In this document: positions 1,788-64,000 of the stretch, one piece after another
How the letters are laid out: each line of letters begins with the position of its first letter
Numbering within the stretch: position 1 is the stretch's first letter
Source of the DNA: Tubulanus polymorphus
Lineage: Eukaryota > Animalia > Nemertea
Reading direction: 5' to 3'
Length of the DNA: 64,000 nucleotides
Assembly: GCF_964204645.1 (NCBI RefSeq)
Contig: NC_134025.1
Coordinates: 14,570,001-14,634,000, forward strand
The notes under the pieces: model-generated
Database searches by the model: none
Seen by the model: only the letters and a program-made list of their open reading frames with translations
Told to the model about the DNA's origin: nothing
Translations under genes and position numbers: made by a program

Positions 1788-1866
1788 TTTAATATCAAAT
1801 TTTTTATTAAAATTGATTTTAGAAGTTATTCATTTTTATTTTATTCATATATATGAATATTTTAAG

Positions 1867-3904: not shown

Positions 3905-4485
3905 GCTAATTCGGGGGTCTATGGGAAAGGTTAATTGGAATGACGAAACGGCTACTGAGAAAAGTTCTACATCGTAACAAACTCGATCGAGACGAACTTG
4001 CAACAATGGTGACCGAAATCGAAGCGGTGTTAAATGATAGGCCGTTGACGTACGTGTCCAGTGATATAGACGCCCAGATCCGATAACACCGTCCCAATTG
4101 TTCCAGGGACGTCGTATTCGTACCGTATTCCGTCGTAAACATCGATGATCTGTGCGATCCGAGTTTACAGAGACCGCTACTCAATACAGAGCTAAGCACC
4201 GAGCTCACCTGTTTCAGCATTTCGTGAAAAGATGGCAGCATGGGTATCTTACAGCTTTACGCGAGACTCAAGTTAATTTCGGAAGTCGGCGTTCAAACGT
4301 TCGCGTTGGAGACATCGTCCTAATTCATAATGATGGACTGCGAGTCGACTGGAGGCTTAGGAGAGTCACCGGTTTGAATTTTTGCCGGGACAACGTCGTG
4401 CGTTCAGCGTTACTTAAAACCGCAACAGGAACGACTAGTAGACCGTTAACAAAGCTCTATCCGCTAGAGGTAAATTGCGGTGGTG
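3905..4485 (+). pseudogene. Bel/Pao LTR retrotransposon integrase C-terminal fragment (DUF5641-like)
   Basis: Translates to GGLWERLIGMTKRLLRK..EIEAVLNDRPLTYVS, then after a frameshift FVKRWQHGYLTALRE..VGDIVLI..DNVVRSALLKT..RPLTKLYPLEV. Confidence 0.85.
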
Positions 4486-4640
4486 AATCAACAACAGTCG
4501 AACGTGGTCCAGTTTTCATCTTGTGTATATTTTTTCCTCTTTTCTAGGGCTGCTTTCTTGTATAAGCTAAATGTTGCTTCAAAGCAGTCCCTCATTCATT
4601 TAATATTACTTCATCTTTAATGTATTTCCTTACTCATTAA

Positions 4641-32288: not shown

Positions 32289-32670
32289 TCAATTGGTCGC
32301 TCCACTTCGCTACCGCTCCGCTCCGCGACCAATTGATTTATTTACAATACACAAATTCATATAATCAAATATATTCAAATAATAATAATCATTCTATTAT
32401 TCAACTGAAATGCACACGGTTATGAAAATATATTATAGTTTTAAATTACTTTTAATGTTTGTTTTTAATGAACTCGACCATTCAACCTTTAACCTGAAAG
32501 CCCATTACCCCTATTACTCTTAAAATATTCATGTAAATGAATAACATTTAAATTGACAGATTATTCAATATAAAAGTATATATTTACAACATTATTTCAA
32601 TGTTCATATTTGTATGAGTTAGATGTTTAAACATTAAAAGTGTTAGTAAAGTGTGATTGAAATAATGCAT
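32289..32670 (+). repeat. Left TIR with terminal hairpin
   Basis: Reverse complement of 49796-50176. The outer end is a stem-loop: tcaattggtcgc (32289-32300) pairs with gcgaccaattga (32325-32336). Confidence 0.9.
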
Positions 32671-33389
32671 AGCTGTTTATACTAGAACATGATTCTATTT
32701 GAGCCTATATACATTTCATGTAATGAACTATTGAATAAATCTATCAATTCACAGCTGATACAGCTGTTACTATGACGCCGAGACATATGAGTCATGATAT
32801 TACAAACGTGTAGAACACTCTAGAACCGGAACCAGATGACGTGGCAAGAAATGAACAGGCGCTGTAACATTACGCTCAGGATATTCTATCTCTCGAAACG
32901 AAATTAGAAGTTTATAGTTTACAATTCTAAATCTAAATGTAAGTACTGTTTTTTGTAGTTATTAGGGCTATTAAATATGAAACCTTTAGATATATGTAAG
33001 TGTATTTAGTATATCTTTTAGATGGCTAGAGTTGCCGCTAATATCTTTTAGATTAATAAAACGCCATACGCATCAAGAAGTGATAGAGAAACTCAAGATA
33101 CTCTTTCTGACTGAGGAATCAACAGCAATGGGGATATCGAACCAATAGAAATTAGCACAAGAAACACAAGAATCGCCAAAAGATCGACGAAGAAACTATA
33201 TAAGAATTTCAAAAACATTAAGACTCCAATGATTAAGTTTAACATTTGTTGATGTAGTTAAATATTTACCAGCAATTGAAAAAATGTTTGTAATTATAAA
33301 TTATATTTATAGAAATCAAATGATGTATTGGAAGAAACGGCCGAACAACTTGTATAATGTATTGTGTAAATCTGATTGGCGAATTTTTA

Positions 33390-33610
33390 TGTTCGGTCGT
33401 TTCTATTCAGAATGAATATATAATTAGGATTAGCGCATGCGCATTGAGCAAAACCGCGCACGAATGCGCGGTTTTGCTCAGTGGTATGATTTAGATATTT
33501 CATGTCGGTTGTTTCTATTTACATAATGAATATATAATTATGATTAACGCATGCGCATTAAGCGAAAGCGCGCTGAATGCGCGCTTTTGCCCAATGGTAT
33601 TATTTAGATA
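33390..33610. promoter_or_regulatory. Two ~120-bp direct repeats, each with a GCGCATGCGC-type palindrome and a GC-rich hairpin
   Basis: tgagcaaaaccgcgca-cgaa-tgcgcggttttgctca (33445-33480) and aaagcgcgc-tgaat-gcgcgcttt (~33565-33587). Confidence 0.6.
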
Positions 33611-33728
33611 TCAAGGAATCGAAAAAATTTTTCAAAAGCAGCGAGGAATGATAAAGGATGACGTTGGTCGAAGAAATGGAAGAGGATTCTAAAATATTAA
33701 CCAATTTAGTAAAAAATACGTATAATAA

Positions 33729-34406
33729 ATGGAACCAGAACAACCACAAACTATCAATATTACAAATAACACTGGTGTTATAAATATATATTACAAGAAA
33801 TGTTCTAAATGTGAATTAGATAAATTAGCTTTAACAGAATTTAGTAAGCGTAAGATTAGCAAACATGGTTTTCAATATTGTTGTAAAACTTGTTTTAAAC
33901 TATATACCAAACAATATCGAGAAGATAATAGAGAAGCTTATAATGATTATATGACAGAATATATGAGAGAAAGATATCAAACAGATCTTAATTTTAGATT
34001 GAAACAATGCTTAAGATCTAGATTAACACAATTATTCAACAAAGAAACACATTCAGAAACACTATCTTATCTATTGGGTTGTTCAGATGAATTTCTCAAA
34101 TCATGGATTATATTTCAATCCGATGATAAAATGAATAAAGATAATTATGGGGATTATTACCATATTGATCACGTGTTACCAATATCTAAATTTAACATGA
34201 ATGATGAATACAATAAAAAACTTATTTGGGGTTGGAAAAATTTAAGGCCTTTAGAAAAGAAAGAAAATCAAATCAAATCTAATAAACTAGATTTACAGTT
34301 ATATTTAGAACAGTTAACAAAGGCAAAGAAATTTATTGATCAATGGAACAATGATCCACATAATGAACAATACGTTGAGGAATTTGATATCAAGGATCCG
34401 AAATGA
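33729..34406 (+). CDS. HNH-type endonuclease with N-terminal zinc ribbon
   Basis: CSKC..CKTC, YHIDHVLP, WKNLRPLEKKENQIKSN; intact 225-aa ORF starting at TAAATG. Confidence 0.75.
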   Translation: MEPEQPQTINITNNTGVINIYYKKCSKCELDKLALTEFSKRKISKHGFQYCCKTCFKLYTKQYREDNREAYNDYMTEYMRERYQTDLNFRLKQCLRSRLTQLFNKETHSETLSYLLGCSDEFLKSWIIFQSDDKMNKDNYGDYYHIDHVLPISKFNMNDEYNKKLIWGWKNLRPLEKKENQIKSNKLDLQLYLEQLTKAKKFIDQWNNDPHNEQYVEEFDIKDPK

Positions 34407-34707
34407 CTTATCTGGACAGTTATAATTACTGCTCCTAATAGATAGACAATAGTAGTGAGATATCAAATAGAATTTAAATAAAATATAATAAAAAAACAAT
34501 AACTTCAACTAGCTAGTGAATTCTATTATATTTTTAATATTTTCTTTTCAAAAAAGAATACTTTATATTTTGAATAGATTCAAATAGAAATTCTTTAAAT
34601 TCAAATAGCTAGTATCAGTAGTCAATACTAGAATTCTTTAGCTTTAACTAGCTAGTATCATTTGAAGAATACTTATAATATTTTTTTGCTTTTTTTCTCT
34701 AATATAA

Positions 34708-35317
34708 ATGTCAAAGAAATCTAATAAGAATAGTATTGATATTGAAAAAAACATTAGATGATTTGGGTATAAGTGATAATAAAGATACAGTTGTAACTAA
34801 TTGTGCTCAAGTTAATTGTAATATAGATTATGAATACTATTTATATTGTAAGCATCATCTAGAACTATTGATTGCCGGTGGAAAAACTAAAGAGTTTTTA
34901 AATAGAATTATTACTTTTCAAGAATTAGATGCTATGAAACCCGATAAAGTAATAAAATATTTTAAGATTTATGAAGAGGCAAGATTAGCTAGAATAAATG
35001 ATTCTATTTCAGATGGTATTGTCAAATGTTATTCTAAGTTATGTAACCAGTTAATACCAATTGATGATGAAAATAAATTATATAGTGATTTGAAAAATGA
35101 CTACTTAGTTATGACTGAATTACAAAAATGGGTTGGTTATGCTTCATTTCAATTAGGATCGGTTATGACATTAATTTCTACTGGCGTCATAACATTTTCG
35201 AACATCAAGCCTATGGAATATAAATCAGGTAAGAATGAAACAGATGACGCTGTACTACAACCAAACGGTGAAACAGAAAATGAATCAGAACAAAAATTAA
35301 CTAAAATAAATGAGTGA
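34708..35317 (+). pseudogene. Polinton hypothetical protein with C-terminal hydrophobic segment (5' frameshift)
   Basis: ATG at 34708 in TATAAATG context is out of frame with ORF 34736-35317; hydrophobic stretch LGSVMTLISTGVITF. Confidence 0.6.
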
Positions 35318-35679
35318 TGGAGTTAAGAAAAAGGCTAGATCCGAGAAACAAATTAAATGGGCAAGAGAATCAGGTAAAAGATCTTCAGAATTAAAAAAAG
35401 CTAAGAAAAAGAATTTAACTGATTATAAATGAATCACAGACTTCATCTGATATTGATTCAAATAATAATCCATCTAATTCTTCTAATGCTGGAAGTAATT
35501 ATAAATTATATATTACAATTGGATTAGTAACAGTTATTATATTATCTGGTGTAATATATAAATCAAAATTCAAATCTGATGATAAAGATGATTCCAATGA
35601 CAATAAACCTATTATACCAGAAAATAAATCAAATCATAAAACCATTGAAAATAAACCAAGATTATTATTAATGGATTAA
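35310..35679 (+). pseudogene. Small basic single-TM protein (frameshifted)
   Basis: TAAATG start, MSDGVKKKARSEKQIKWARESGK..., frameshift near 35425, then YKLYITIGLVTVIILSGVIYK...LLMD*. Confidence 0.55.
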
Positions 35680-35685
35680 AATAAG

Positions 35686-36771
35686 ATGAAAAAAGAACAA
35701 TATTTAAGAGATTTATATTATAACCCAGAAAGTGAAGTATCATATTCCAACGTTTCAGAATTATGGAATAAAATTAAATCTGATAATGGTGATATAAAAT
35801 ATAGTGAATTAAAATCATGGTTACAAAATCAACCAACATATCAAATCCACAAGAAAATGGATAAAACTTATTTAACAAGAAAAGTTATGGTTTCATATAT
35901 CGATCAACAATGGCAAGCAGATTTAATTGACATGAAGAACTTAGAGGAATACAACAAAGGATATTTCTGGATATTAAATGTTATAGATATATTCAGTCGA
36001 TACGCATGGTCAATTCCAATCAAAAATAAAACTGGAATAGAAGTGACAAATGCTTTTAAATCTATATTTAAAGAAGCTATTCCAGATAAGATACAATTTG
36101 ATGAAGGAAAGGAATTTTATAACAAACATTTTAAAAAACTATTATCTGATAACGATGTAGATTATTTTTCAAAACATTCAGATAAAAAAGCATCTATTAT
36201 AGAAAGATTTAATAAAACATTGAAAATTAGAATGTGGAAATATTTTACTGCTAATGAAACATATAAATATATCGATGTATTAGATGATTTAGTGAAAGGT
36301 TATAATAATTCTAAACATAGTTCTATAAATATGAAACCTATACAAGCTAGAAAAGAAGATAATTCGGAAATAGTTTGGAATAATTTATATGGAGCATTTG
36401 TTACACATGATTTCGGTGAACCTAGATTCAAAATTGGACAACACGTCAGAATATCTAAATATAGAAAAACATTTTATAAAGGTTATACCCCAAATTTTAC
36501 TGAAGAAATATTCAAGATTAAAAAGATAATATTAACTAAACCATGTGTTTATAAATTAGAAGATTTAAGAGACGAACAAATATTAGGTTATTTCTATGAA
36601 CAAGAATTATCACTTGTACCAAATCCAGATGAAATAGAATACAAAATAGAAAAAGTATTGAAAACAAAAACTCCCTAAGGAAAAAAGTATTCTTTGGTGA
36701 AATATAAAGGATATGATGATAAATTTAATGAATGGATTTTATCTAGTCAAATTAAAAGAATAAATGAATAA
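35686..36771 (+). pseudogene. Retroviral-like (rve) DDE integrase with C-terminal chromodomain; premature stop at 36676
   Basis: QWQADLIDM, VIDIFSR, QFDEGKEF, IERFNKTLK. Reading through the TAA gives YKIEKVLKTKTP*GKKYSLVKYKGYDDKFNEWI. Confidence 0.92.
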
Positions 36772-37375
36772 AGATTTATTTATATTTGAACCGCATAATA
36801 TGTTAGTTACTGGAGTAACCAATTGTGGTAAAACACATTTCATATTAGATTTGTTAGAAACTATTTATAAGAATCATTTTGATAACATAATATTATTTTG
36901 TCCTACTTATGAAATGAATAAAACATATAATAGAGATATAGTTAAGATAAAAAAGTTTATTATATTAAATCCTAAAACAGTAAAAGAAAATTTAGATAAT
37001 TGTATTAAAATAGCAATTGAAACTTATTAAGGATCAAATACATTATTCATTATAGATGATTGCGCAAATTTACATGATTCAAAAGTGAGAGAAAGTGAGT
37101 TATGTTATTTAGCTTTCTCTGGAAGACATTTTGGGATAACAACATGGGTTTTAAATCAAAAATATAATTCAATTGTTAAAGACTTTAGGGAGAATATAAG
37201 ATTTCTAGTTTTATTTTATAACAAAGATAAAAAATCTATGCAACAATCATTGGAAGAAAATCAAATTATACCTACTGAGTTACATGATGAATATATGAAT
37301 AAATTAAAGAATAATAAAGGTTCAAAATTATTACTGAGATTACAATTTCCCTATGAATATAAATTTATAAAATAA
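36764..37375 (+). pseudogene. A32/FtsK-like DNA packaging ATPase; in-frame stop at 37028
   Basis: Walker A GVTNCGKT, Walker B FIIDDC just after the stop, SGRH motif. Confidence 0.9.
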
Positions 37376-37773
37376 CTATTTGTGTACCTATGTATTAGAT
37401 GCCCTAATACCTGATACCCCATTAGATACCCTAATACCTGATACCCTATTAGATACCTTCAATACTTAAAACCACCTTTTTTAAGATAAATATTATCTAT
37501 ACAATTTTCAACCAATTTATTTTTATTTTTTCAACTAATATATGAATAAGTTTGAAAATAATAAAGGTTATTTATTATTACTGAGGTTTCAATTTCCATA
37601 TGAATATCAGTTTATAAAATAAGATATTTTATGTATTAGATTGTATTAGATTGTATTAGATATGTATTAGATACCTTAAATACCTTAAATACTTAAAACC
37701 CCCTTTTTTATTTACTATTATTTTATACAATTTTCAACCAATATTATTATTTGTGTTAAATATAATTAATATT

Positions 37774-38672
37774 TTAATCACTTTCACTATCAGACCCTAA
37801 CAATTTATTCAAATTCTCTACCGAATTTTCTTCTTCAAATTCTTTATTATTTTTATACTTTTTCATCCTTTTTACCGAATTATCAATAGTTGTTTCATTG
37901 TTATGCTTATTCATCCAATCAAATTTATCATTATTTTCTACTTTATGTTTCATAGAATCTTTAATATCAATATGCTTATCTGTAACTATATCTTCATTAT
38001 TATCTTTATTAGTGTTTGCTCCTAATATTTCATTTACAGTGTTTGGTTTTAATATTTCATTAGCATCGGTTAGATCTAATTCATCTTTATTAGGAGTTGC
38101 TAATAATAAATCTTTATATAATTCTTTACCATTTACTTTTTGATTTGAAACAAACTTTGTAACATATCTAAATGGGTGTTCTATAAATTCTTTTAAACCA
38201 ACATGTTCTATAACATTACTTATATGTACCCTTGTATTCATATGTTTATTCCAATTTGATGAGCGTTTGAAAATTCACTTTTACAATATCCACAATAATT
38301 TCTATTTTCACTAACATTTAATATTATTTCATTATTAGATGTAGAAGGTATTACATTATTAGATGTAGAAGGTATTACATTATTAGATGTAGAAGGTATT
38401 ACATTATTAGATGTAGTAGGTATTACATTATTAGAAGTAGAAGGTATTACATTATTAGATGTAGTAGGTATTACATTATTATCAATTACATTACTTAAAT
38501 TATCAACAACTTCACTTTTATTATTATCGATTTCTATTAGTTTAGTTTTATAAATTTTGAAAATAGGATCAAATATCAAAGCTATATTACAAGGTATTAC
38601 ATAATATAAACCATCATTATTTTCATGTGTATCGATGTATGGAATATGTTTATATACTTTACCTCCTTCCAT
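37774..38672 (-). pseudogene. Hypothetical protein with 8-aa repeats (NNVIPSTS) and a C2H2-type finger split by a frameshift
   Basis: Joining the two ORFs gives YCGYCKSEF/KRSSNWNKHMNTRVH; 24-bp tandem repeats at ~38325-38495. Confidence 0.6.
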
Positions 38673-38704
38673 TTATATAATAAATTTTTATTAAAGTTAA
38701 AATT

Positions 38705-40150
38705 TTAATACATAACACTATCTAATTGTGAATTTACAATATTTAATTGTGCGTCAGATATAATATAAATGTGCATTTTAAAATTTTTGATTCCTTTATT
38801 CTTTGTCATGAATAATTGTATTCCATCTTTAGTGTTCTGTAGTTTTTTTCCAAAACCATGTTATGAATTATCCTCTGTTGTTCTAAAATCTAACCATAAT
38901 GCATATTCATTACCGGTATAATAATCAATTTTATTAATGTTACAATTTTCAGATGATTTCACTTTTTCATTCATAAAATGTTTTCTAATTTCTGGCCATT
39001 GATCAATCATTCTCATTCCTTGACAAAATATTTTATTTGCTATTCCTTCGATAGTTATTTCTACTTTTGTTATTTCAGGATTATAATAATTATCAACATT
39101 TATTGCGCCATTAGTATATGTTGCAATTTTATTAATGTTACAATTTTCAGATGATTTCACTTTTTCATTCATAAAATGTTTTCTAATTTCTGGCCATTGA
39201 TCAATCATTCTCATTCCTTGACAAAATATTTTATTTGCTATTCCTTCGATAGTTATTTCTACTTTTGTTATTTCAGGATTATAATAATTATCAACATTTA
39301 TTGCGCCATTAGTATATGTTGCAATGGTAAAAAATATTAATATACCTTTAATAGATCTTCTTGGGAAGTTAATATTCTCATTAATAATTTCATCATTTGC
39401 ATTAATAGTTACAGTTTTAAATTTATCAATATAATCATATAATAATGAAAATCCTTGATTGTATTGAGTTTGAATTATACTTGCAATATTTTCATCAGTT
39501 ACTGTATCATATTCTAAACATATATTCGATAATTTATAACTCATATCTTTATTAACGCTAGATATTACAATTTCATTTACAGGAGCAAATGTTATTTTGA
39601 ATATAACGTCTTCTTGAATTGCGTATTTATATAAAGGTGCATTGTTATTTATCAATTCAAAGTCTAATGGAATTTTATATTTGATTCCATATATACTTTT
39701 TATCAATTTATCTACAGCATTAGTTAATATTGCGCTATTAGCTTCTGATCTTAATTTATTTTGGTTTTCTGATTGGATTCCTTGAAATACCATATTATTT
39801 CTATTTTCTTTAGTTAACCATAAATCCTTATAATGCATAAATAAATTATAATCATCTAATGAGAAAACTGTTTCTGGACCAATCTTTATAGTTAATTTTT
39901 TAATCAAATATCTTCCAACATTATCAACAACATAATTATTATTATTACCGATTACTTTTATATCGGCTGATGAATAAATACTATTTGGAACATAAAAAGT
40001 ATTTTGTGTTAATCTAGGAATTCTAACATATAAAGTTTCATCGGGATTAATATTAGAAGGGTTATGAGTAATTATATGATGTGATCTTTCTGCTTTAATA
40101 GCATTAGATATTCTATGATTCTTAGAAGGATTGATATAACTCCCACTCAT
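38705..40150 (-). pseudogene. Major capsid protein (double jelly-roll), with an in-frame stop at 38861 and a 198-bp internal duplication
   Basis: THNPSNINPDETLYVRIP, IPLDFE, LSNICLEYD, ALWLDFRT. Read-through gives DNS*HGFGKKLQNTKDGIQL..IISDAQLNI, typical of Polinton MCP C-termini. Confidence 0.8.
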
Positions 40151-40170
40151 TTATTTAACAAAAAAATTAA

Positions 40171-41760
40171 TTATTTATTTTTTATCATGTTTACTAGCCC
40201 AAAAATAATAGCACTTACAACTGTAATTAAAAATAAAATAATATGTTCAGCAGCAAAGTTAATAATATTCCCTGCAGATTTCAATATAAAACCAACAATT
40301 GATGCAATAACTCCTGGCAATGCTGCAGCAGATTTCTTTGATAGTTCCCATAAATATTTTGCTAATTTCTTTAAACCATCCTTAACTTTATCTTGTATAG
40401 AATTATTGTCATTCGGGGGTTTATCTGGTTTATTTGGAGTAGGAGTAGATTGCAGTGAATTTGATATAGCTAAACCTATTGTTGTAAATACCATAGTTAC
40501 AGCTGTTAGAATTGAAAGAATTGTTATTCCTTCTAACTTAAATAATAATTTTATTCTATCTTTCAATGATATTTTAGAATCTGGTTTTATCAACAAATCT
40601 TTAAAAATAACTTTTAATCTATTAATATTATAATCATATGATTTTAATAATGATTAATTTCTTCTTTTTGTAATTCTATGTTATATTCTAAATCATCTTT
40701 TTCTTTTTCTAAATACGCATTTCATTTTTTAAATTCGATTTCTTCAATAACTTTATTATCTCTATCTAATTTTAGTTGTTCTATTTCTTTAATTTTATCA
40801 GTTCTATCTTTTTCTAAAAATCTAATTTTAATATCTTTTACTTTTTTCATGCGCAATTTTATCAGCTGATTCTTGCATACCTTTAATTTCTCTACGCGCT
40901 TGTTCAGGAAATGCTTCTAATTCATCATCATTTAAATCAAATAATCCTTTTTCTAGTAAAGATTGTATTCGATTTATTCCAGTTTCAGCACCGGGTGTAT
41001 CTAAAGCACTATTCATCTCTTCTTCAAATGAATGAACTGTATCTAACATGTTATCAAAATGTTTTACTAATTGTAATTGACTTGAATCATTATCAATTTG
41101 TTGAATATCTCTTCTCGATGTTTCGGGTGTTGAAGATCTTAATTTATCTAATCGATCTCGATTCTCTTCCATTTCCGTTTTTGAATTTTTATCGATTATT
41201 TCAAATAAGTCATCAATTCTTTGACTAAATACTCTTATATTATCATCTCTTTCTTCTTGTGTAACATCAGTTATTTCATTACTATTACTTATTCTTTTAA
41301 TTTTATCTGGATCTAATTTTCTCAAAGTTGATTCCGCTAATATTTTATTTAGTCTTGTCTTTTGATTAGTGATATCAATATAATAATCACCATCCAAACG
41401 ATAATAATATTTACCTTTAAAAAGTTTTAATTTTTGTACTAAAAGTCTGGCGCCTCTATCATTTATATTATATCCAGATTCTTTAAATACACGTTGAAAA
41501 TCATACATAAATTAATAATTTTCAAAATTTTCTCTTTCTAAACCTTGATTTTCATTTTCAGGAGGTATTCTCGATCTAGTTCTTCTATCAAATTCATCTG
41601 TTGATGGGGCTTTAGAACCACTATCTGCTAAATTAGAATTATATGCTGATTCATTACCATCATCAATATTAGTTTCTGCATCATTATAATCATCATCAAT
41701 ATATCCTTCATTATTATTTCCCATGCCTTCCATTTCATAATCTTCTCCACCTTCTGCCAT
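40171..41760 (-). pseudogene. Large acidic/coiled-coil protein with C-terminal membrane segments (three fragments)
   Basis: ORFs 41512-41760, 40828-41508 and 40171-40596 are collinear with a single TAAATG start; C-terminal GITILSILTAVTMVFTTIGLAI and LPGVIASIVGFIL..IILFLITVVSAIIFGLV. Confidence 0.65.
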
Positions 41761-41775
41761 TTACATAATAAAAAA

Positions 41776-43054
41776 TTAAAATTTAAAATATAATATTCCT
41801 CCGATTACAATTCCTATACAAGTTAAAGCTAATTTAGTATTTTCATGGGATTTATTATCATCATTTAGTTTAATTATATCATGTTGAATATTATCAGTTT
41901 TTATATTTTCTGATGTATTGTAATCTTTTATTTTAGAATCATTATTTAATTTAATATTATTAGTTTTAGTTTCAGTTGATTGAATGTGTTTTTTATTTTT
42001 TTCACCTTTCATTAATTTTGGAGCAGTGATAATCTTTTTATTTATATCATTTAATCCAAATGAATTATTTATTGTTGCAGTTTTAATTAGATTATGATAA
42101 CCAATTATATTTCCCATCTTTAATACTAAATCATTAGAAATAATTAATAGATTAGGGCCTATACAATAATTTAATCTAATATGTGATTTATCTAAATAAT
42201 TTTGATATCTTACAATGTTTTCTGGAATCGATCTATTTTTATCATTGTGAATGGAATCTTCAAATAATACTTTAAACTGTTTCTGCGCATCGAATGAAGT
42301 GTTATCATTTCCAATTATTGGGGATCTTGTTTCAACTTGCGCACCTAAAATACATATCAAATAAGTTCTAATAGATTGATTTATTCTTTGTATTCCAGCT
42401 TTAGTAAAACCTTCACTATTTTTTAAAATGAAATTAACCCAACCCTTAGTGTTATCAATTTTATAATTATGATAAGCTGAAATTCTATGCATATAATCAA
42501 TTCTTTTTATTTCAAACTCTTCACCAACACCTGCAATTTACCATGCGCTCTAAAATCGGAATTAATATTTATATTAAATTCATTACATATTTTATAAAAC
42601 TTAGATTCTTTAAAATATTAGACCCGGGTAAAGGACATTCTAATTCATTTAATATTATTCTGATTTGAAAAGATGTGTGAAATCTATATATTGTGTGAAT
42701 AAATTTTAAATCAGAATACTTCAAATTTTTATCTAAGTTATTTAAATGATCATTCCAACTTATTCCACATCCTGTTGTTGCACAATAAACAACAAAATCT
42801 AATTGGTTCTGCCAATATTTCATATTAGATTTTACTTTATATATATGGTATTCATCTCGAGTAAAAGTAACTTCATATGTATTAAGTATATTTTCCATTT
42901 TAGAAATAAAAAACTGTGATTCAGTAACATAAATTTCTAAATTAGTTAATGAATTTAAAACTACATTTCTATATGTAATATTTTTCTTAAAATCTATTGA
43001 AGGAATATTATATTTAATTGATTTATTATATTGGAAAGCTTTTGGAAACCCCAT
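41776..43054 (-). pseudogene. Polinton hypothetical protein with C-terminal TM anchor (frameshifted)
   Basis: ORFs 42569-43054 (WQNQLDFVVYCATTGCGIS) and 41776-42492 (GFTKAGIQRINQSIRTY..LALTCIGIVIGGILYF). Confidence 0.65.
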
Positions 43055-43070
43055 TTATATAATTAAAAAA

Positions 43071-43505
43071 TTAATAATTAACTAATTCTTTTAATAATTT
43101 ATCTTGTTCTTCAACTGTTATATGGCCATTTAAACTTATTATATAATCTAGTGTATTCTTCAATTTATTAATTTCTTTTATATTAGTTTTAATTTTTTCT
43201 TTATTACTTTTTATATTTAATTTTGAACTTATACCAGTTAAAACACTTGAACTTAATCCTAATACGCCAATTGATATAGCTAAAGGTGTTAATGGACTGA
43301 ATATTGCTAGAAATGTTATTACAGAACTAATTGTAACCGAACCACTTATAATCAAATAATATATAATTTTAGATTTTAAATATTGTTTCTTTTTAACTTT
43401 TAAGTCACTTTCAAATTCTAATATTTGTTTTTCTAAATATGTTTTTAATTTAGTTTTATTTATATCATGAGGAATAATATCAATATTATCAACTTTATCT
43501 TCCAT
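43071..43505 (-). CDS. Small two-TM membrane protein
   Basis: IIYYLIISGSVTISSVITFLAIF and LAISIGVLGLSSSVLTGI; TAAATG start. Confidence 0.7.
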   Translation of the reverse strand: MEDKVDNIDIIPHDINKTKLKTYLEKQILEFESDLKVKKKQYLKSKIIYYLIISGSVTISSVITFLAIFSPLTPLAISIGVLGLSSSVLTGISSKLNIKSNKEKIKTNIKEINKLKNTLDYIISLNGHITVEEQDKLLKELVNY

Positions 43506-43525
43506 TTATTTAGCAAAAAAAATTA

Positions 43526-43948
43526 CTAATTAGTAAACTTATAAGCAACAAATATAACAATAACAGTTCCGCATAAAATCCAAATTATTTCATATTTCTT
43601 CTGTTCATTACTTGGGGTATAATAATCTGATATTGTAGGTTTATGTAGATGTAATTTTTCTTTATTGGTTACCGCGTTATATAAACTCATTGCATCATCA
43701 ACTGATTGAAAATCTCTATGTGAAATCTTCTGATCATATAATTCCTTGTTAATATAATCCATATAGTTTTGCCTCTTTTCTCTATATTCTTCCGCAGCTT
43801 TATTGTATTTCTCTAATGCTAAGTTATGTCTTTTTTGTTCTGTTAATGATCCATTTTTATCAATATGCTTAAATAAATAACCGCCACCAGTAAATGCTAA
43901 AGCGTTAACAATTGCCGATCCTATAATAGTTATAACTGCAGAAGCCAT
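43526..43948 (-). CDS. Small membrane protein (N- and C-terminal hydrophobic segments)
   Basis: AVITIIGSAIVNALAFTGGGYLF..EQKRHNLALEK..IIWILCGTVIVIFVAY; TAAATG start. Confidence 0.7.
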   Translation of the reverse strand: MASAVITIIGSAIVNALAFTGGGYLFKHIDKNGSLTEQKRHNLALEKYNKAAEEYREKRQNYMDYINKELYDQKISHRDFQSVDDAMSLYNAVTNKEKLHLHKPTISDYYTPSNEQKKYEIIWILCGTVIVIFVAYKFTN

Positions 43949-44190
43949 TTATTTAGTAAAATAATTATGTATATGGGAGGAATATATTTTTGTTTTTCTA
44001 AATAATCAATAGTTAAATTAGATAAAGTAACTGCTAATGTTAATTTTAAAATATCATTTATATCAAATCTATCAACATTAACACTTCCCATTTTGAATAC
44101 TTTTTTTAATACCATTGAATAACCAACAGTTCCAACTGATAGTAATGCTCCATTATATAATCCAGTTATTATCCACTTATTATCACTCAT
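43930..44190 (-). CDS. Small hydrophobic protein
   Basis: GLYNGALLSVGTVGYSMVL..YLEKQKYIPP; TAAATG start. Confidence 0.6.
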   Translation of the reverse strand: MSDNKWIITGLYNGALLSVGTVGYSMVLKKVFKMGSVNVDRFDINDILKLTLAVTLSNLTIDYLEKQKYIPPIYIIILLNKWLLQL

Positions 44191-44294
44191 TTATTTATCA
44201 AAAAAATTACTATCATCAAAATATTTAGTTAACTTATTTATGATTATTTCAACATTTATTTCATTACTAGTTTCATTTTTATATATTTCAATTA

Positions 44295-44546
44295 TTATTT
44301 TTTAATATCATCGATGATAAAATCTTCATCTAATTCATAAAATCTTAAAGATTCTCTAATTAAATTAGTAATCTTTTCTACATTAAATGTTTTTTTATCT
44401 ATTGTTTTTTCATACTCAAATGTTGTTTCATTAGAAAATGTAATATTTTTGATATGTGTAATTACATCAGTAATGTTAAACTTCATTTCTTTCTCATGTT
44501 TAAAATCAAACCCAAAACATATACTCGGCCCAACAGTTATATTCAT
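44295..44546 (-). CDS. Hypothetical 83-aa protein
   Basis: Packed between neighbours and preceded by the conserved TAATTTTTT..TATAAATG motif. Confidence 0.55.
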   Translation of the reverse strand: MNITVGPSICFGFDFKHEKEMKFNITDVITHIKNITFSNETTFEYEKTIDKKTFNVEKITNLIRESLRFYELDEDFIIDDIKK

Positions 44547-44562
44547 TTATATAGTGAAAAAA

Positions 44563-45309
44563 TTACTCTTTACATCTTATAACTAATTCATACATCACAG
44601 GAAAGTTATTCAAATCAATTAAATAACCATTATGATTTCTTATTTCTAATTTAAAATTATTAAATTTAGGAATGCAAGGTTTAAAATCACATTCTGTTAA
44701 ATTATAATTTATTTGAGTTCCAAATTGTTTTAGCGGTAAAATATTTAGTATACTAGAACTACAAATTGTTTCTTTAGTTGCTTCGAAAGTTTTTGTAGGC
44801 TCGATTAAATTGCAATAAATATAAAAGTGCGTAAAAGGTATTATATTTGAGCTGCCTTCTGCGTTTCCAGTAACTGTAAGAGGTTTAATTCCTAACATTT
44901 TAGCCAGTGGTTTGTTTACCATAAATTTATGTTGTTCATTAGATATCTTTATTCTTATTTTATTAGTACTATCAATTTTATTAAATTTAATTTCAAATAC
45001 AGAAGTGCCCCCGATTTTCAACCGAGCTCTTCTATTAATTTCCTGCGCTAATGATTCTAAATTATATAATCCTGGTTTTAAAAATATATGAAACCATTTA
45101 TCTTTATTTCCCATATAAATCATAAACCCTCTATGTTCAAAAGTTTTATCTGATATATTATAAAAAGAATTACATAAACTTATATTAACTAATTTCAAAT
45201 CTACACAATTCTTAAATTCTCTATCTAATTGAACTAGTAAATTATGAGATTTATAATTAGTAAGTTTTCTTGAATCAACAAATATTCTGTATTCTTTTAA
45301 TTCCACCAT
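44563..45309 (-). CDS. Minor capsid protein (penton, single jelly-roll)
   Basis: IFVDSR..NSFYNIS..KPGLYNLESL..YIYCNLI..SILNILP..LEIRNHNGYLIDLNNFPV pattern typical of Polinton mCP; 248 aa, intact. Confidence 0.75.
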   Translation of the reverse strand: MVELKEYRIFVDSRKLTNYKSHNLLVQLDREFKNCVDLKLVNISLCNSFYNISDKTFEHRGFMIYMGNKDKWFHIFLKPGLYNLESLAQEINRRARLKIGGTSVFEIKFNKIDSTNKIRIKISNEQHKFMVNKPLAKMLGIKPLTVTGNAEGSSNIIPFTHFYIYCNLIEPTKTFEATKETICSSSILNILPLKQFGTQINYNLTECDFKPCIPKFNNFKLEIRNHNGYLIDLNNFPVMYELVIRCKE

Positions 45310-45326
45310 TTATTTTACATATTTTC

Positions 45327-45680
45327 TTATTCGAAATCTATTTCATGGTGCCATTTTTCATTCTTACCTTTGTATACGAAATAGAAATCACCAGAACATA
45401 ATTCTTCTAAATCTTCACTTGATAATCTATGAAATCTATCTGGTAAAAATGTTCTGAATTTATGTGTATTTCCTTTTAATCCTTCATATTCTAAGTGTAT
45501 AACTAATTTATCTCCATAGTTATTAGTAACTGTATCAATATTTGTAATTAGATATTTCTTATGAATTGTTAATTCTGTTAACTTTTTGAATTTATAATCT
45601 ACAGATTTTACATTTGTGATATCTTTAATTCTATCTAGAAATAATTTGTTGTTCTCACTGTGCGCTTGTTTACTCTCCAT
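45327..45680 (-). CDS. Hypothetical 117-aa protein, possibly OB-fold nucleic-acid binding
   Basis: FKKLTEL..KYLI..TNNYGDKLVIHL..TFLPDRF beta-rich pattern; adjacent to pPolB and shares its upstream motif. Fold assignment is a guess. Confidence 0.5.
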   Translation of the reverse strand: MESKQAHSENNKLFLDRIKDITNVKSVDYKFKKLTELTIHKKYLITNIDTVTNNYGDKLVIHLEYEGLKGNTHKFRTFLPDRFHRLSSEDLEELCSGDFYFVYKGKNEKWHHEIDFE

Positions 45681-45775
45681 TTTAATAACATATTTTTATT
45701 AAAATTTGATTAACACGTTAGAATTCTTTTCATTATCTCGTTCTCTTTTGTTTCTTCTCTTTTAAATTTTAAGTA

Positions 45776-48700
45776 TTAATCTAAATTGCAACCATATGCA
45801 ACTGTATGAATTCCATCATCTAAAATATATCTTTTATCATCAAATGGGTTTAGACTTATCTTTTCAATTTCTTCAATAAACATTTCATGATCTTCAGATC
45901 TTAAACATCTCATCTTATGTTTTCTAACTTCTTCATTGAATATACAATTGATGTAATCTTTGAAATGAATATTCTTTTCTACTACACTTTTGGTTATTCC
46001 TTTTAACTTTTTAGCTTCATGTTCTTTTTTATATGAATACATTTTAGATCTAATACCTATGAACTCTATCATTTCTTCACCGCCTAATTCATCCTTAAAC
46101 TTCCCTGGAACTTTTTTATTATCATTGCTAAACAATTCATGATCTTTAGGATAATTACTAAAATCAAAATGATGTTTTAATGTTTTTAAATCATCAGTTA
46201 TGTTATCAGTTTTTATCTTTAATATGTAAGAATCTGTATCAAAATATAGTATTTCTATATGTTTTTCTCCAAAAAGTGGTTGTAATACATTATAATAGAA
46301 TTCATACATTAGTAATTTTGATAATTCTAAAACTGAAGCGCCAACATAGATTGGTTTATTAAATTTCATTGATGTTCTTCTCATCTTAACTGCGGCTAAA
46401 TTTTCATCAAATATTCTGTTACCAATGAACTTAGGATATGATTGTAAATGCCTTATCCTTTTGCCATTACTTACTAACTCAATATCATTTCTATTTCTAA
46501 TATTTTCACAAGTCTTACCATAGAATGCATTATTCATTAACTTGAAGAAATCTTTCTCGAAATCAGTTTTAGCTTCAGTTCTCTGTTTGGTGTTAAAATC
46601 TATATATTTTTCTAACCACTTAGATTGGCTGAATGAAATATATCTATGTACTTTTTTTATAATCATTCCTTGATTCAAATAAAACTTTAACATTCTATAA
46701 TGTACTACATAATTATATTTATCTTCTTGAGTTACCATTAACTTTTCTGTATGAATATGATTTTCGGGTTTAATTCTTTTTTGGTAATTTGATAATTCTT
46801 CATGTGTTACAGTTTTATGTTCGGGGCAGTATGCTAGATTTCTAGATTTAAATTTTTTATCTTCAGGATATTCTAAATCTACAACAAAGAAGTAACCAGT
46901 ATCTGAATCATCTGCAATATCTAGAATTCTTTTCTTCCAATCAAATTTATCATTATTTTCATTCTGTAAAACTTCAGTTAATTCAAAGACTCCATAAGGT
47001 TGTGGTTCCACCATTGCCCAACCATACAAATTATTTGCACCTATATATATAATAACTTATATCCAGGGTTATCATTTACATTGAAATATCTATCCCCTAA
47101 TCCACCTGAAACACCTCCTCTTATAGATTTTTCAAATAATAGTAATTGATCTATATTTGTTAACAAATCCATTTTTATATCTGTACATTTTAATCCACAA
47201 TCCCATGTTAATCCTGGTGATGAATAACAATGGCAAGGATCAATATTAAAATATTTTAGGTTTACATCTCTAAACCTTTCGAATATATCGGTTAATAATA
47301 ATACATCTGATTTTAGATATAAATCTACTAATTGCCCATGATTTTCTATTTTGAAATGATTCCAAATATTCAATGTTCTATTATATACTTCATCTTTAAC
47401 ATATTCATTTTTTAATTCATCATAGAATTGTTCTTTCAATAATTCAGTTATGTTAAAATCATTATGATTTTTATAAAATGAATATGAAATAGCGCCTTTA
47501 TATCTCATTAACTGAAAATCATCATTATTTGGGTAATATTCTTTTAACATCTTTAATTCATCATCAACTAATGATTTTGATAAGTTATCTAATGAACTAT
47601 TTAAAAATCTATATGAATCTATAAATCTTAAACACCCAAATTGGAATGATGTATAATTCTCAGATGTTTTAGCTAACATTCTAAATTTATAAGTTGGTAT
47701 TTTATCTTTTGATCTATTTGAATTTAATCTTTCTATTTCATTATTAATTTCTTCTATTTTATGACATAACTGTTTGATAAATAAATGTGCATCATATCCT
47801 GATAGATTATGAAATATAACTGGTACAAAGTTAATTTTCTTAGCTTGTAAGTTACAATTCTCATGTGCAGCGCCTCTAAACTTTCCATTCAAATGCTCAT
47901 GGTCTCTTACTTTTTTATCTTTATAATTAAATATCTTTTCACAATAATAACATTTACCTGAAAACACAAATCCTTCTTTATCTTCTTCTGTCATTATAAT
48001 TTCTATATTTGTATTCAATAATTTACTAAATCTTATTTCATATTCAATTAATAAGTCACAAAAATGATTGATAACATTTTCATTTCTGTAATGATAATAT
48101 TCACTTTCAATTAGTTCTGGATAATCAGATTTAATATATAACCCGAAAGCTGCAGCTGATTGATGAATCTTTTTAATAGTATTTGTTTTTGGTGGTTCAT
48201 CTGAAAAATCATTTTTATTAGAATTTAATTTCTTTCTTTTATAATATATTTCTTTTCTATCTTGATCAGTTCTTTATTTAATGATTCAAAATCTCCATAT
48301 ATAACAAATGGAACTTTATTTTTGTAATCATATTTTTTGAATTATAATATTTTATCTTTTTCATTTGGTAAAACTAATTTACAATAATCATGATTATCAC
48401 ATAATTGTTTATGATTTAATAATGTACTTTCATTACTGAATCTATGTAAACATTTTCTACAAAGATATATTTTATGGTGATCATTTTCTGATTTATAAAA
48501 AATATATCTATTTGTTTAATCCACATATAATGATTCTCATAATATAGTATATCTATAACATCGTTTGAATCGTAATCTTTTGATAGGTATAAAGGTTCTA
48601 ATGTATAATGTTTTATATTGTTACCTTTTGTATTTGGTAATTTGATTAAATCAAATACATTTATCTTTATATTATTATCTCTTTCTATTTTTGGGATGTT

Positions 48701-49741
48701 TTTAATTATAACAGGATACTTATCTATCTTATAATTATTTTCAAATTGTTTATAATGAGTTAATCTAAAACTATGTTGTTTATAATCTTCAACTGGGTGT
48801 AAACAACTTATTATAGCCCATAGAAAACATTTATCATCTTCATTTTGTACATTTATTACAGCATTAGTTTTAAATGGTAGTTTAATAAAACTCGATGCTT
48901 CAATATCTGGTTCTTTATAATATGATACATTATTTTCATCTATTGGTTTCGATTTAGTTAACTTATTATATTTTGTGTTATAAACATGTAAAGTCATAAA
49001 TATTATTTCATCAAATATTAAACCAGATCCATCAAAATATTTCTCTTCTATTTTAGTTTTTACTTCATTATAACATTTATCTAATTTATCATCTATATGT
49101 TGTTTAGATATAATATGTTGTGAATGAGAATTTATATTATATATTGGTTTATCTTCAGATTTTATAAACTTTACTTTAGAAGATATACTAATTTTAGGGT
49201 ATTCAACATCTGTAATTATTTTTATAATATTTTTCATATTTTCTAAATGTTTTTTTATTTTCTTCTAATGTTTTTCCTTTATGAAATTTAAACTCGATAG
49301 CTGCTGGGCCAATATCACTTTTAAATGCTTCGGTTATCTCTATATCTTTTTTATTATCCAATTGATTAATATATTTTCTTACATCTTCCATGTATGGTCT
49401 TTTATTGTTTAATTTATTTTTTATGCTTTTAATTGTCTTCTGTTTCTTATCATTATCTTTATCAAAATAATTTTCACCTAAAATAACATTATTCATATTA
49501 CTAATATGACTTTTAGATTTTAAATGTTCATTATAATATCTTTTATCACTGAATGATTGATTACATGTATCACATTTGTATGTTTCTTTTTCATTCTTTA
49601 ATTCATCTAATTTAGTTTCTAATCTTCATATTCTAATTTCAATTTATTCTCTAAATGTGTTTTAGTTTTATTGTGTCTTGCTTTTTGGGATTTATCTATA
49701 TTGATATTACATGTTGGACAGTAGTACTTATTTGCTTCCAT
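45776..49741 (-). pseudogene. Protein-primed family B DNA polymerase (pPolB), fragmented
   Basis: Exonuclease motifs IYGDFES and FHNLSGYDAH; endonuclease VII-like CYYC..RDHEHLNGKFRGAAHENCN; motif B KLMNNAFYGK; motif C YFDTDS. Motif A is broken by a 2-bp slip near 47041. Confidence 0.95.
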
Positions 49742-49795
49742 TTTAATACTAAATTTTTTATTAAAATTGATTTTAGAAGTTCAATGATTTATATC

Positions 49796-50176
49796 ATGTA
49801 TTATTTCAATCACACTTTACTAACACTTTTAATGTTTAAAAATCTAACTCATACAAATATAAATATTGAAATAATGTTGTAAATATATCTATATATCTAT
49901 TCTATAAGAGCTTACACTTTTATATTGAATAATCTGTCAATTTAAATGTTATTCGTGTATATGATTATTTTAAGAGTAATAGGGGTAATGGGCTTTCAGG
50001 TTAAAGGTTGAATGGTCGAGTTCATTAAAAACAAATATTAAAAGTAATTTAAAATATAATATATTTTCATAACCGTGTGCATTTCAGTTGAATAATAGAA
50101 TAATTATTATTATTTGAATATATTTGATTATATGAATTTGTGTATTGTAAATAAATCAATTGGTCGCGGAGCGACC
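49796..50176 (-). repeat. Right TIR ending in mini-hairpin ggtcgc-gga-gcgacc
   Basis: Reverse complement of 32295-32670 with scattered mismatches and a ~28-bp insertion near 49890. Confidence 0.9.
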
Positions 50177-61580: not shown

Positions 61581-64000
61581 AGTAATTGGAAAACTGGGCT
61601 TTCAGATCAGAGTACGAGAGTACGAGACACCACTCATCACCACAAGTAATTTTTTTTCCTTATAAATGGGAGAGAGTGAGTACCAGACAGAAAACAATAA
61701 TGTTAATAAAAATCAATATTATTGCCCATATTGTAAAAAATACATCGATAAATCTAATAAATCTAAACATGAAAAATCTTCAAATCATATAAAAAATGTT
61801 ATAGATTTTGAAACTACAGAAAATTCCAATGAAAGAAAAGAACGATTAGAAAATATGAATGTGGATGAAATAAAATGTGAAGTTTGTAATGAATTTATAG
61901 TAAAAAGGAATTATAATAGACATCTCGAATCACAAAAACACCATCAAAATTTGAGTAATAATGTTTTAGGAAAAGATTATTTTGATGATAAACCTCAAAA
62001 AGTAAAAAAACCAACTTCAAAAACTAAATCCATTTCAAATAAACCTTACATGGAAAATGTTAGAAATTATATTGATTCACTAGAAATAAAAGATACAATT
62101 GAAATTTTAGAAACATTACATAGTAAAATTGGTCCTGCAGCTATTATATTTAGATTTTTTAAAGGAACAACAATAGAAGATTATAGTAAATTTAATGAAA
62201 TAATAGAAAAAATACTAGATTTGATAACAGATGTTGAATATCCAAAAATTAGTATCTCTGGGAAAGTAAGTTTTATGAAGTCAGAAGAAAAAATTAATTA
62301 TAATATTCAAACACTCTCTGAAGAAATAATTTCAAAAACACAAATAAAAGAGAAGTTAGAAAAAATATTAAATGAATTTAAACGTCATATTGAAGAAAGA
62401 TATTTTGAGGGTTCTGGCTTAACATTGAATGAAATTATATATTTAGATTTAAATGTTTATAATACAAAAAGAAACAAAACATCAAAAAGTAATAAAATGT
62501 TTAAAAATGATTCAAACTTTACAACAGAAAAGGATATTAAAGCATCATCTTATATTAAATTACCATTTTCAACAAAAGCAGTAATAAATATTCAAAATGA
62601 AGATAATGAATGTTTTCTATGGTCAATTATTAGTTGCTTACATCCAACACAAGAAAATGTTTGTAGAATAACAGATTATCGGAAATATCAAACATTATAT
62701 AAAATTGATCAATATCCAGTAACTATAAAAATGATTCCTAAAATAGAAAAAGTTAATCATTTAAAAATAAAAGTATTCGAATTAATGCAATTACCAAAGA
62801 CAAAAGGTGAAAATATTAAAGATTATACATTGGAAGCTTTATATTTAACAGAATATTATGATGATGAAAATGCTATAGATTTGTTATATTACAAAAAAGA
62901 TGAAAATGAACATTTTATGTGGTTAAAACAAATAGATTTATTCTTTAGAACAGAAAGTGATCATCATCATAAAATTTATCTATGTAGAAAATGTTTATCT
63001 AAATTTATGACTGAGAATACATTATTAAAACATAAAGAATTATGTGATAATAAAGATTTTTGTAAATTAATAATGCCAACAGAAAAAGATTGTAAGTTGA
63101 AATTTACTAATCATAAATTTAAGAATATTGTTCCATTTGTAATTTATGGGGATTTTGAATCGTTGAATAAAGAATTAACTGATCAAGATAGAAAAGAAAT
63201 ATATAACAAAAAGCAATTATTAAAATCAATGGATAAAGGAAATGAATTAAATGAAGATATAATTCAAGACCCACCAATTATAAATACAATTAAAAAAGTT
63301 CACCAAAGAGCTGCTGCTTATGGAATTTACATAAAATCAAATTATCCTGAATTATATGAAAGTCAATATATTTCTTTTAGAGGTGAAAATGTAGTTAATG
63401 ATTTTTGCGACAAAATGATTGAATTAGAAAGTGATTTTGCAAAATTATTAAACAAAAATAAAAGAATAGTTATGACAAAAGAAGATGAAATTGATTTTAA
63501 TTATGCAACTCATTGTTGTTATTGTGAAAAACGTTTTTATTCATTTGATAAAAAAGTTAGAGATCATGATCATTTAAATTCAAAATATCGTGGAACTGCT
63601 CATGAAGATTGCAATTTACAAGCTAAGAAAGTTAATTTCGTACCAATATTATTTCATAATTTATCAGGCTATGATACCCATCTATTTATAAAACAATTAT
63701 CAAAGAAATTGGGTACAATTAATCAAGAAATAGAAGAATATAATGCTATGAATGGTGTAAATGTAAGAAAATATGATTTTAAACTATTAGCTAAAACATC
63801 TGAAAATTATATTTCATTTCAATTTGGTTGCATTAGATTTTTAGATTCTTATAGATTTCTAGCAAGTTCATTAGATAATTTATCAAAAAGTTTAGTTGAT
63901 AATGATTTTATAATAACTCGATACTATTATCCAAATGACCAAGATTTTAAATTATTGAGATATAAAGGTGCAATTCCTTATTCATTTTATAAAACACACA
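61581..64000 (+). mobile_element. Polinton/Maverick copy 3 (divergent family), left end, continues beyond window
   Basis: Abrupt start agtaattggaaaactgggctttcag directly after satellite, resembling the TIR motif agtaataggggtaatgggctttcag; followed by pPolB. Confidence 0.85.
61666..64000 (+). CDS. pPolB, uninterrupted partial ORF (778 codons in window, no stop)
   Basis: Manual translation: MGESEYQTE..YCPYCK..KCEVC..FEGSG..INIQNEDNECFLWSII..HFMWLK..VIYGDFES..VRDHDHLNSKYRGTAHEDCN..FHNLSGYDTH..FLDSYRFL. Absent from the ORF track, presumably because it has no stop in the window. Confidence 0.93.
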   Translation, partial: MGESEYQTENNNVNKNQYYCPYCKKYIDKSNKSKHEKSSNHIKNVIDFETTENSNERKERLENMNVDEIKCEVCNEFIVKRNYNRHLESQKHHQNLSNNVLGKDYFDDKPQKVKKPTSKTKSISNKPYMENVRNYIDSLEIKDTIEILETLHSKIGPAAIIFRFFKGTTIEDYSKFNEIIEKILDLITDVEYPKISISGKVSFMKSEEKINYNIQTLSEEIISKTQIKEKLEKILNEFKRHIEERYFEGSGLTLNEIIYLDLNVYNTKRNKTSKSNKMFKNDSNFTTEKDIKASSYIKLPFSTKAVINIQNEDNECFLWSIISCLHPTQENVCRITDYRKYQTLYKIDQYPVTIKMIPKIEKVNHLKIKVFELMQLPKTKGENIKDYTLEALYLTEYYDDENAIDLLYYKKDENEHFMWLKQIDLFFRTESDHHHKIYLCRKCLSKFMTENTLLKHKELCDNKDFCKLIMPTEKDCKLKFTNHKFKNIVPFVIYGDFESLNKELTDQDRKEIYNKKQLLKSMDKGNELNEDIIQDPPIINTIKKVHQRAAAYGIYIKSNYPELYESQYISFRGENVVNDFCDKMIELESDFAKLLNKNKRIVMTKEDEIDFNYATHCCYCEKRFYSFDKKVRDHDHLNSKYRGTAHEDCNLQAKKVNFVPILFHNLSGYDTHLFIKQLSKKLGTINQEIEEYNAMNGVNVRKYDFKLLAKTSENYISFQFGCIRFLDSYRFLASSLDNLSKSLVDNDFIITRYYYPNDQDFKLLRYKGAIPYSFYKTH

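Follow-up and report, generated by a model that had tools for sequence, protein, structure and literature searches.

Virophages such as mavirus and EMALE04, which accompany CroV, and Sputnik and Guarani, which accompany mimivirus, are small viruses with a double-jelly-roll (DJR) capsid that lack an RNA polymerase and put a helper-type late promoter before their own genes (PMC10945749, PMC6510173; the sources cited in this text were available in part, and statements drawn from them refer to those parts). The element studied here, copy 2 of three related elements in a 64,000-nucleotide stretch of contig NC_134025.1 (positions 14,570,001 to 14,634,000; hereafter the window, in whose numbering all coordinates are given), is likewise a small DJR-capsid virus without a detected RNA polymerase of its own, and it shares integration by an rve integrase and a DNA polymerase B of the protein-primed type (pPolB) with mavirus-like elements (PMC10945749, PMC6510173). 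Virophages differ in their protist hosts, Imitervirales helpers and other motifs, whereas this element carries a poxvirus-type motif and has a likely animal host. The element is an integrated, decayed Polinton-like virus (PLV). A poxvirus-late-like signal at 13 of its 16 gene starts, shared by its relatives and not by their sister group, suggests that its transcription likely relies on an RNA polymerase borrowed from a helper of pox type.

Other described systems resemble the element in part. The PLVs AHEV_PLV1/2, CBEV_PLV1 and Ca_PLV1, which occur in entomopoxvirus occlusion bodies, are likewise animal PLVs and have been proposed as poxvirus parasites; they differ in having an adenovirus-type protease, an L2-mu-like protein and, as integrase, either a tyrosine recombinase or none known, and their major capsid proteins (MCPs), compared by eye only, bear no likeness to that of the element (PMC11296320). 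A word search of that source gave no occurrence of promoter, motif, transcription or TAAAT. Maverick/Polinton elements and adintoviruses share pPolB, the rve integrase, an A32 ATPase, a DJR MCP, terminal inverted repeats, a length of about 17.8 kb and integration into an animal-like genome (PMC8502044, bioRxiv 2026.06.19.733378), but no adenain-like protease was found in the present element and its MCP has no Pfam DJR_capsid match. The yeast linear elements pGKL1/2 are also protein-primed linear DNA with a TAAAN initiator and a poly(A) leader, but they have no capsid or integration, use an ATNTGA upstream box and have their polymerase encoded by a partner plasmid (PMC6211774). In vaccinia late promoters, TAAAT followed by G overlaps the start codon and a T ten bases further upstream is conserved (PMC11980589), and entomopoxviruses likewise use TAAATG (PMC3061580). 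The element has in common with vaccinia late and intermediate promoters the TAAAT(G/A) over the start codon, a T-rich patch about 10 nt and an A/T-rich patch 15-19 nt upstream, and back-to-back gene pairs (PMC11980589, PMC5294985, PMC12917281), but it carries the motif on nearly all genes, including replication genes, with no early-type promoter class seen. Promoter sharing between virophage and helper and entomopoxvirus-associated PLVs are known already. By word search, "promoter" is not used in PMC8502044, PMC11131425 or bioRxiv 2026.06.19.733378, 2026.10.13.758929 and 2024.03.23.586382 (bioRxiv supplements excluded), and literature searches, whose coverage takes in few subscription journals, gave nothing on pox promoters in Polintons.

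An earlier note on this window had listed 14 ATGs as lying in TAAATG, and all 14 are preceded by TAA; one of them (61666) falls outside its range of 33720-49775 and sits in the third, more distant copy. The starts that it set apart were also as described, TAAGATG for the integrase as the exception and TAAAATG for pPolB (49741 and 1787) and the gene for a 117-aa protein (45680). With the 16 gene starts of copy 2 fixed via homology with intact relatives, 13 were TAAATG, two TAAAATG and one TAAGATG. TAAATG was enriched over an AT-rich Kozak context: of the 656 other ATGs in the element, 38 are in TAAATG (Fisher p = 2.8e-13) and 37 in AAAATG. In-frame internal Met codons were dropped as unfit for this control because any TAA preceding them would end the reading frame. 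With the last 20 nt shuffled, 100,000 rounds gave a mean of 1.5 and a maximum of eight TAAATG starts, compared with the 13 observed. The longer pattern TTTTT-N6-WATAAATG matched seven times in the 64 kb (0.16 expected), each time at a gene start, while 12 of 13 window matches to T-N6-WATAAATGR, and 14 of 15 matches in the related metagenome locus L001, were gene starts. Two finer claims stood in part. The T-tract ascribed to structural and membrane genes is present as a run of at least five T before seven of the 13 TAAATG starts, but not before all structural genes, and it also precedes pPolB of copy 3. Similarly, the upstream stop codon supplies the TAA of the TAATTTTT box in three of six structural cases but never the TAA of TAAATG (0/13).

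The sequence ahead of the initiator is patterned as well. Across 67 TAAATG starts, A is enriched at -18 to -16, T at -15 to -10 with a peak at -12 (61/67), and A at -4 (58/67). The T at -12 is a stronger feature that the first reading missed: after de-duplication, 54 of 59 starts have it, as do 37 of 115 TAAATG sites that lie elsewhere than at starts (p = 8e-15); it is kept at eight of nine starts in GC-rich relative loci, and T at -13 occurs at 44 of the 59. The poxvirus set came from 37 loci around the large RNA polymerase subunit, and its 388 TAAATG starts were reduced to 148, among which 101 have T at -13 and 86 at -12. Centred upstream profiles of element and poxviruses correlated best at shift 0 (r = 0.47, permutation p = 1e-4), compared with r = -0.02 for the control sites, and the element profile matches chordopoxvirus TAAATG promoters within one base. 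The pox early terminator TTTTTNT was uninformative in L001 (152 occurrences, 147 expected). Outside the element clade, seven matches to T-N6-WATAAATGR (0.66 expected) were noted in a phage-like contig (L036), off start codons and several of them in or near intergenic gaps; they may represent a late promoter of the phage itself.

An alignment of the capsid protein yielded 23 metagenome loci, of which 14 were scored as close relatives and three as a sister group; L013 (a near copy of L012), L017 (a near copy of L014, broken) and L020-L023 (weak matches) were excluded. As starts in the relatives, the first ATGs of open reading frames (ORFs) away from the contig edge were chosen manually, with internal fragments of broken genes and short ORFs in antisense set aside, and nine of the 62 had no or a weak blast match to a window protein. 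TAAATG stands at 54 of these 62 starts versus 79 of 2048 other ATGs, and at nine of 11 starts in three relative loci with 36-44% GC. The sister loci L014, L018 and L019, which have homologous genes, a GC content of about 0.30 and an upstream AT content of 0.79-0.87, show it at none of nine starts, and AT-rich giant-virus-like contigs, each chosen for one such site, show it at two to three of 7-11 ORFs. Composition does not explain the motif, since it is kept at 36-44% GC and absent from the AT-rich sister loci. In a quick tree, built without L015, L016, L018 and L019, the window grouped with L001-L013 in a clade that takes up 55 of 84 rows (support 94, unstarred), and L014 fell outside it. The TAAATG motif is lineage-specific, being conserved across one capsid clade and absent from its sister group.

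A second box, here called class 2 as distinct from the T-tract class 1, is real and fixed in position. TTTAATAAAA starts 23-24 nt before the ATG at four window starts (seven window matches in all) and at five starts in L001, L002, L012 and L013, with one more match in L003 away from a scored start; these nine starts have an A-run at -18 to -13 and retain the T at -12. The box had been assigned to pPolB and the 117-aa gene, and it precedes both in copies 1 and 2, but it precedes gene 38672 too. It also marks the 38672 family and the candidate minor capsid gene of L001, while pPolB of copy 3 and the L001 homologue of the 117-aa gene carry the T-tract class instead. None of the fetched element loci combines the box with TAAAATG; relatives pair it with TAAATG, and TAAAATG was found only in window copies 1 and 2. 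The temporally staged programme proposed on the basis of these classes is unproven, as the class-2 box is not tied to replication genes and does not sort by function. Vaccinia-type intermediate promoters combine a TAAA initiator and an AT-rich patch 15-19 bases upstream with no upstream T (PMC11980589). Speculatively, the A-rich box could mark a stronger or earlier, possibly intermediate-like, subset of genes.

Gene layout was compared using gene gaps and class-2 distances read by hand from coordinates. In copy 2, six pairs of genes reading in the same direction are separated by 15-20 nt, which is the length of the motif. In L001 the TAA of TAAATG is the upstream stop in one of 12 adjacent pairs, and two pairs have a stop followed by a second TAA. 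Divergent TAAATG pairs with ATGs 19-28 nt apart are present in five relatives, and the same arrangement is found in 40 of 45 poxvirus loci; the leftward gene extends past the contig end in the divergent pairs of L010 and L011, and the leftward start of L010 resembles, by eye, the 45309 family. As ATG gaps of 19-28 nt leave no room for 5' untranslated regions (UTRs), the back-to-back layout agrees with transcripts that begin at the start codon and is difficult to reconcile with TATA-driven RNA polymerase II (Pol II) promoters and 5' UTRs.

We put at roughly 55% the probability that this PLV would be transcribed in trans by the pox-type cytoplasmic polymerase of a poxvirus or a close relative; with other pox-like polymerases included, transcription in trans by a pox-type enzyme appears decidedly more probable. 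In line with the earlier claim, no RNA polymerase was detected in the element, and neither RNA polymerase nor TBP or TFIIB matches were found in window or relative proteins. The promoter-like signal (A-rich at -18 to -16, T-tract peaking at -12, W-A-TAAATG) would be read by the RNA polymerase and late factors of a co-infecting helper, and the element would then be a parasite of virophage type. Initiation inside TAAAT would explain how the genes work without room for 5' UTRs and with T at -3, a poor base in the host Kozak context. By analogy with vaccinia and yeast linear elements, the polymerase would initiate within TAAAT and then slip on the TTT of the template, which would produce a 5' poly(A) leader (PMC11980589, PMC6211774), and the viral polymerase would read TAAA directly (PMC12917281). 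The integrated copy, by analogy with EMALE04, would be silent until a helper infects the cell; on infection it would be replicated by its own pPolB and packaged in the cytoplasmic factory of the helper, like EMALE04/mavirus with CroV (PMC10945749).

Several points weigh against this attribution. The T peak is one base closer to the ATG than in vaccinia and other poxviruses (-12 versus -13), and the element has a strong W-A before TAAATG, with A at -4 in 85% of starts in its clade versus 39% in the poxviruses compared. The poxvirus set is not independent, because the same 8-14 orthologous genes are re-sampled per locus, and it consists of chordopoxvirus-like DNA only, with no entomopoxvirus DNA. 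The sister control is small, comprising nine starts that are first-ATG guesses, and the quick tree (support 94, unstarred) has L014 as a long branch. Yeast linear elements also have TAAAN initiators and poly(A) leaders, so the motif does not identify a poxvirus; coral polintoviruses are expressed, and the available part of that work reports no helper; and the small 117-aa, ~126-aa and ~206-aa proteins could themselves be promoter factors. Regarding the pox or nucleocytoplasmic large DNA virus helper suggested in the earlier note, the motif matches chordopoxviruses in general, but no co-occurring helper emerged from the motif, RNA polymerase and deoxynucleoside kinase scans, which detect close matches only. 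The promoter-motif scan of viral contigs returned 14 contigs, all of them unrelated and without enrichment at gene starts. The RNA polymerase scan, which requires exact 8-residue words, returned 37 loci with 77-100% identity to the poxvirus query; entomopoxvirus-like or distant lineages were not among them. One giant-virus-like contig with a relative of the L001 deoxynucleoside kinase had three TAAATG versus 5.3 expected, which is no enrichment.

Host Pol II is an unlikely source of the transcripts; it would act in the nucleus and be guided by a factor, from the host or encoded by the element, with affinity for the T-tract/WATAAAT box. WATAAA does look like TATA and AATAAA, several small conserved proteins are without assignment and coral polintovirus genes are transcribed, but no scanned protein matched TBP or TFIIB, the box abuts the ATG whereas a TATA box lies 25-30 nt before the start site (PMC5294985), back-to-back genes leave 5' UTRs no room and the spacing matches poxvirus promoters. 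Very improbable, and largely refuted, is the reading in which the motif serves translation or compaction, as stop-start coupling, as an AT-rich Kozak context or as the poly(A) signal of the upstream gene, instead of being a promoter. The TAA is the upstream stop at no window start and in only one adjacent L001 pair, a true stop-start overlap that speaks for such coupling together with the tight packing in six gaps of 15-20 nt and the AATAAA contained in about half of the starts. The motif is also found at first genes and divergent pairs without an upstream gene, is kept in GC-richer relatives while absent from AT-rich sister loci, and is reached at only a minority of ORFs in the AT-rich giant-virus-like contigs; to our knowledge, a fixed T at -12 plays no part in Kozak context.

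Slightly less likely than host Pol II is a pox-like polymerase provided in trans by something other than a poxvirus, either a virus resembling asfarviruses or egoviruses or a linear element that carries an RNA polymerase, of the kind on which pGKL1 depends, the polymerase being that of pGKL2. The G/A after TAAAT, the overlap with the ATG and the T at -12/-13 are specifically pox-late, and inspection by eye did not show the ATNTGA box of yeast in upstream sequences of the window and relatives. Yeast virus-like elements do use a TAAAN initiator with slippage (PMC6211774), and late promoters of African swine fever virus are bipartite as in poxviruses, but that virus uses TATA-type motifs (PMC5294985). 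Basal egovirus-like genes are known from marine sediments, and the relatives of the element come from metagenome contigs, both of which would suit such a donor.

Returning to a helper of poxvirus type, we suggest more tentatively, and with some doubt, that the whole capsid clade (at least 55 MCPs, down to ~47% identity) may consist of endogenous virophages of an undescribed invertebrate-infecting poxvirus-type lineage, in which pox-type promoters would have replaced host-type ones after the split from the sister group and T at -12 and W-A-TAAATG would be the fingerprint of the helper. The analysis addresses how animal Polintons without an RNA polymerase are expressed and whether any of them depend on a helper. 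Poxvirus hyperparasites have so far been known only from occurring together with the virus in insect occlusion bodies, and the available part of the source gives no mechanism (PMC11296320); a lineage-specific pox-late promoter would supply one. If true, an unseen pox-type virus is predicted in this host group and an inducible virophage-type defence would be possible in animals, while TAAATG with T at -12 would serve as a cheap screen sorting Polintons into helper-dependent and autonomous ones.

Copy 2 is a 17.8-kb AT-rich island (32319-50173; GC 0.21-0.31 versus ~0.39 in the flanks) and is decayed, with the majority of its genes broken (Table 1). The Polinton features pPolB, rve integrase, A32 ATPase, DJR MCP and terminal inverted repeats are present, along with an HNH-type nuclease and about ten further genes, several of which have hydrophobic helices. 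Searches for an adenain-like protease gave no Pfam protease match in 24 window ORFs or 11 L001 ORFs, which a remote homologue may escape. At the outer ends of the copy 2 repeats neither AG...CT ends nor a 6-bp target-site duplication are clear. The ends of two more copies lie within the window, copy 1 at 1-2018 and copy 3 at 61581-64000, both with AGTAAT at the candidate end; copy 3 is more distant (pPolB 65% identical over 177 aa). Three related elements in 64 kb suggest a cluster or a preferred insertion site.

Several structures accompany these copies. Copy 1 terminates in a near-perfect hairpin of ~150 nt (1862-2018, -55.7 kcal/mol, z -17) that starts with AGTAAT and may be a fold-back terminus or a miniature inverted-repeat transposable element; part of one arm looks, by eye, like the inside of the copy 2 terminal repeat. 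Two tandem GC-rich palindromic hairpins at 33430-33600, in the non-coding left arm of copy 2 ahead of the first gene, may be an origin or a structured element. Copies 2 and 3 are immediately adjoined by a 31-bp satellite and a ~9.8-kb duplication (11400-32300, 59000-61580). The animal host is likely, judging from one DUF5641 retrotransposon fragment, the sole host clue in the sequence; we take this domain to be tied to BEL/Pao elements, which are mostly animal.

Table 1. Coordinates of copy 2 and its genes, of the partial copies 1 and 3, and of the host-side fragment
Feature	Coordinates	Strand	Remarks
Left terminal inverted repeat, copy 2	32319..32670	+	~350 bp; 91-96% complementary to 49796-50173
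Zinc-finger + HNH/EndoVII-like nuclease, 225 aa	33729..34406	+	phrog_1035 E 1.8e-15; TAAATG start, A-run -18 to -13
Conserved gene (~206 aa in L001), frameshifted	34708..35317	+	TAAATG start with T-tract
Conserved gene (~130 aa in relatives), frameshifted	35310..35680	+	TAAATG start, blast-backed
rve integrase, premature stop	35686..36678	+	PF00665 E 1.8e-9; start TAAGATG, the exception
A32-type packaging ATPase, two pieces	36764..37372	+	PF04665 on both pieces; TAAATG start
Variable gene, two pieces	37774..38672	-	Class-2 box 23 nt upstream + TAAATG
Double-jelly-roll MCP	38861..40150	-	T-tract + TAAATG promoter at 40148-40166
Conserved gene, C-terminal hydrophobic helices (485 aa in L001), three pieces	40171..41760	-	TAAATG start, T-tract
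Conserved gene (442 aa in L001), two pieces	41776..43054	-	T-tract + TAAATG
144-aa protein with hydrophobic stretches	43071..43505	-	T-tract + TAAATG
140-aa protein, hydrophobic termini	43526..43948	-	TAAATG, T at -12
Small hydrophobic protein (75 aa in L001)	43930..44190	-	T-tract + TAAATG
Small conserved gene	44295..44546	-	T-tract + TAAATG
248-aa beta-rich protein, candidate minor capsid	44563..45309	-	Weak DUF5901 match; TAAATG, T at -12
117-aa protein	45327..45680	-	Class-2 box 23 nt upstream + TAAAATG
pPolB, several pieces	45776..49741	-	One piece matches PF03175 (E 1.7e-6); class-2 box 24 nt upstream + TAAAATG
Right terminal inverted repeat, copy 2	49796..50173	-	Pairs with left repeat
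Copy 1: 5' part of pPolB, start 1787	1..1811	-	Class-2 box + TAAAATG
Copy 3: pPolB, open to window end	61650..64000	+	T-tract + TAAATG promoter (class 1)
Host-side DUF5641 retrotransposon fragment	4149..4544	+	E 1.1e-16

Among the genes of copy 2, the start at 34708 is backed by its position relative to intact homologues and, by eye, a similar N-terminus, and the L001 homologue of the A32 ATPase was matched with E 4.6e-11. The MCP has an internal duplication and lacks its normal C-terminus. Its structural model (pLDDT 67) matched in Foldseek the PBCV-1 MCP (E 1.7e-7), vaccinia D13 (E 7.1e-7) and also EhV-201, while mavirus or Sputnik MCPs were not among the matches listed; the L001 MCP, like that of the window, has no match to Pfam DJR_capsid, and the MCP belongs to a large unnamed family with 2,560 representatives. 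The 442-aa protein (41776-43054; L001 2996-4324) has 1,321 homologues and a confident model (pLDDT 83), which found no structural match in BFVD or PDB (best Z 4.8). The minor-capsid label of the 248-aa protein (44563-45309) is our assumption from motif likeness, and the 117-aa protein, for which searches gave neither homologues nor a structure match, may be a single-strand DNA binder. A 24-nt tandem repeat in the variable gene (38238-38672) encodes NNVIP(T/S)TS units.

Relatives of the MCP were found in none of the viral-contig, genome-contig and phage-record collections. MCP relatives of the P0042 cluster were observed on short contigs of several Bartonella-labelled assemblies; they are likely carried-over eukaryote or virus DNA and hint at a host range beyond the metagenome loci. 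L001 carries a deoxynucleoside kinase (10340-10981; PF01712, E 1.7e-31) behind a full T-tract/TAAATG promoter, and this is a cargo gene adapted to the common promoter signal.

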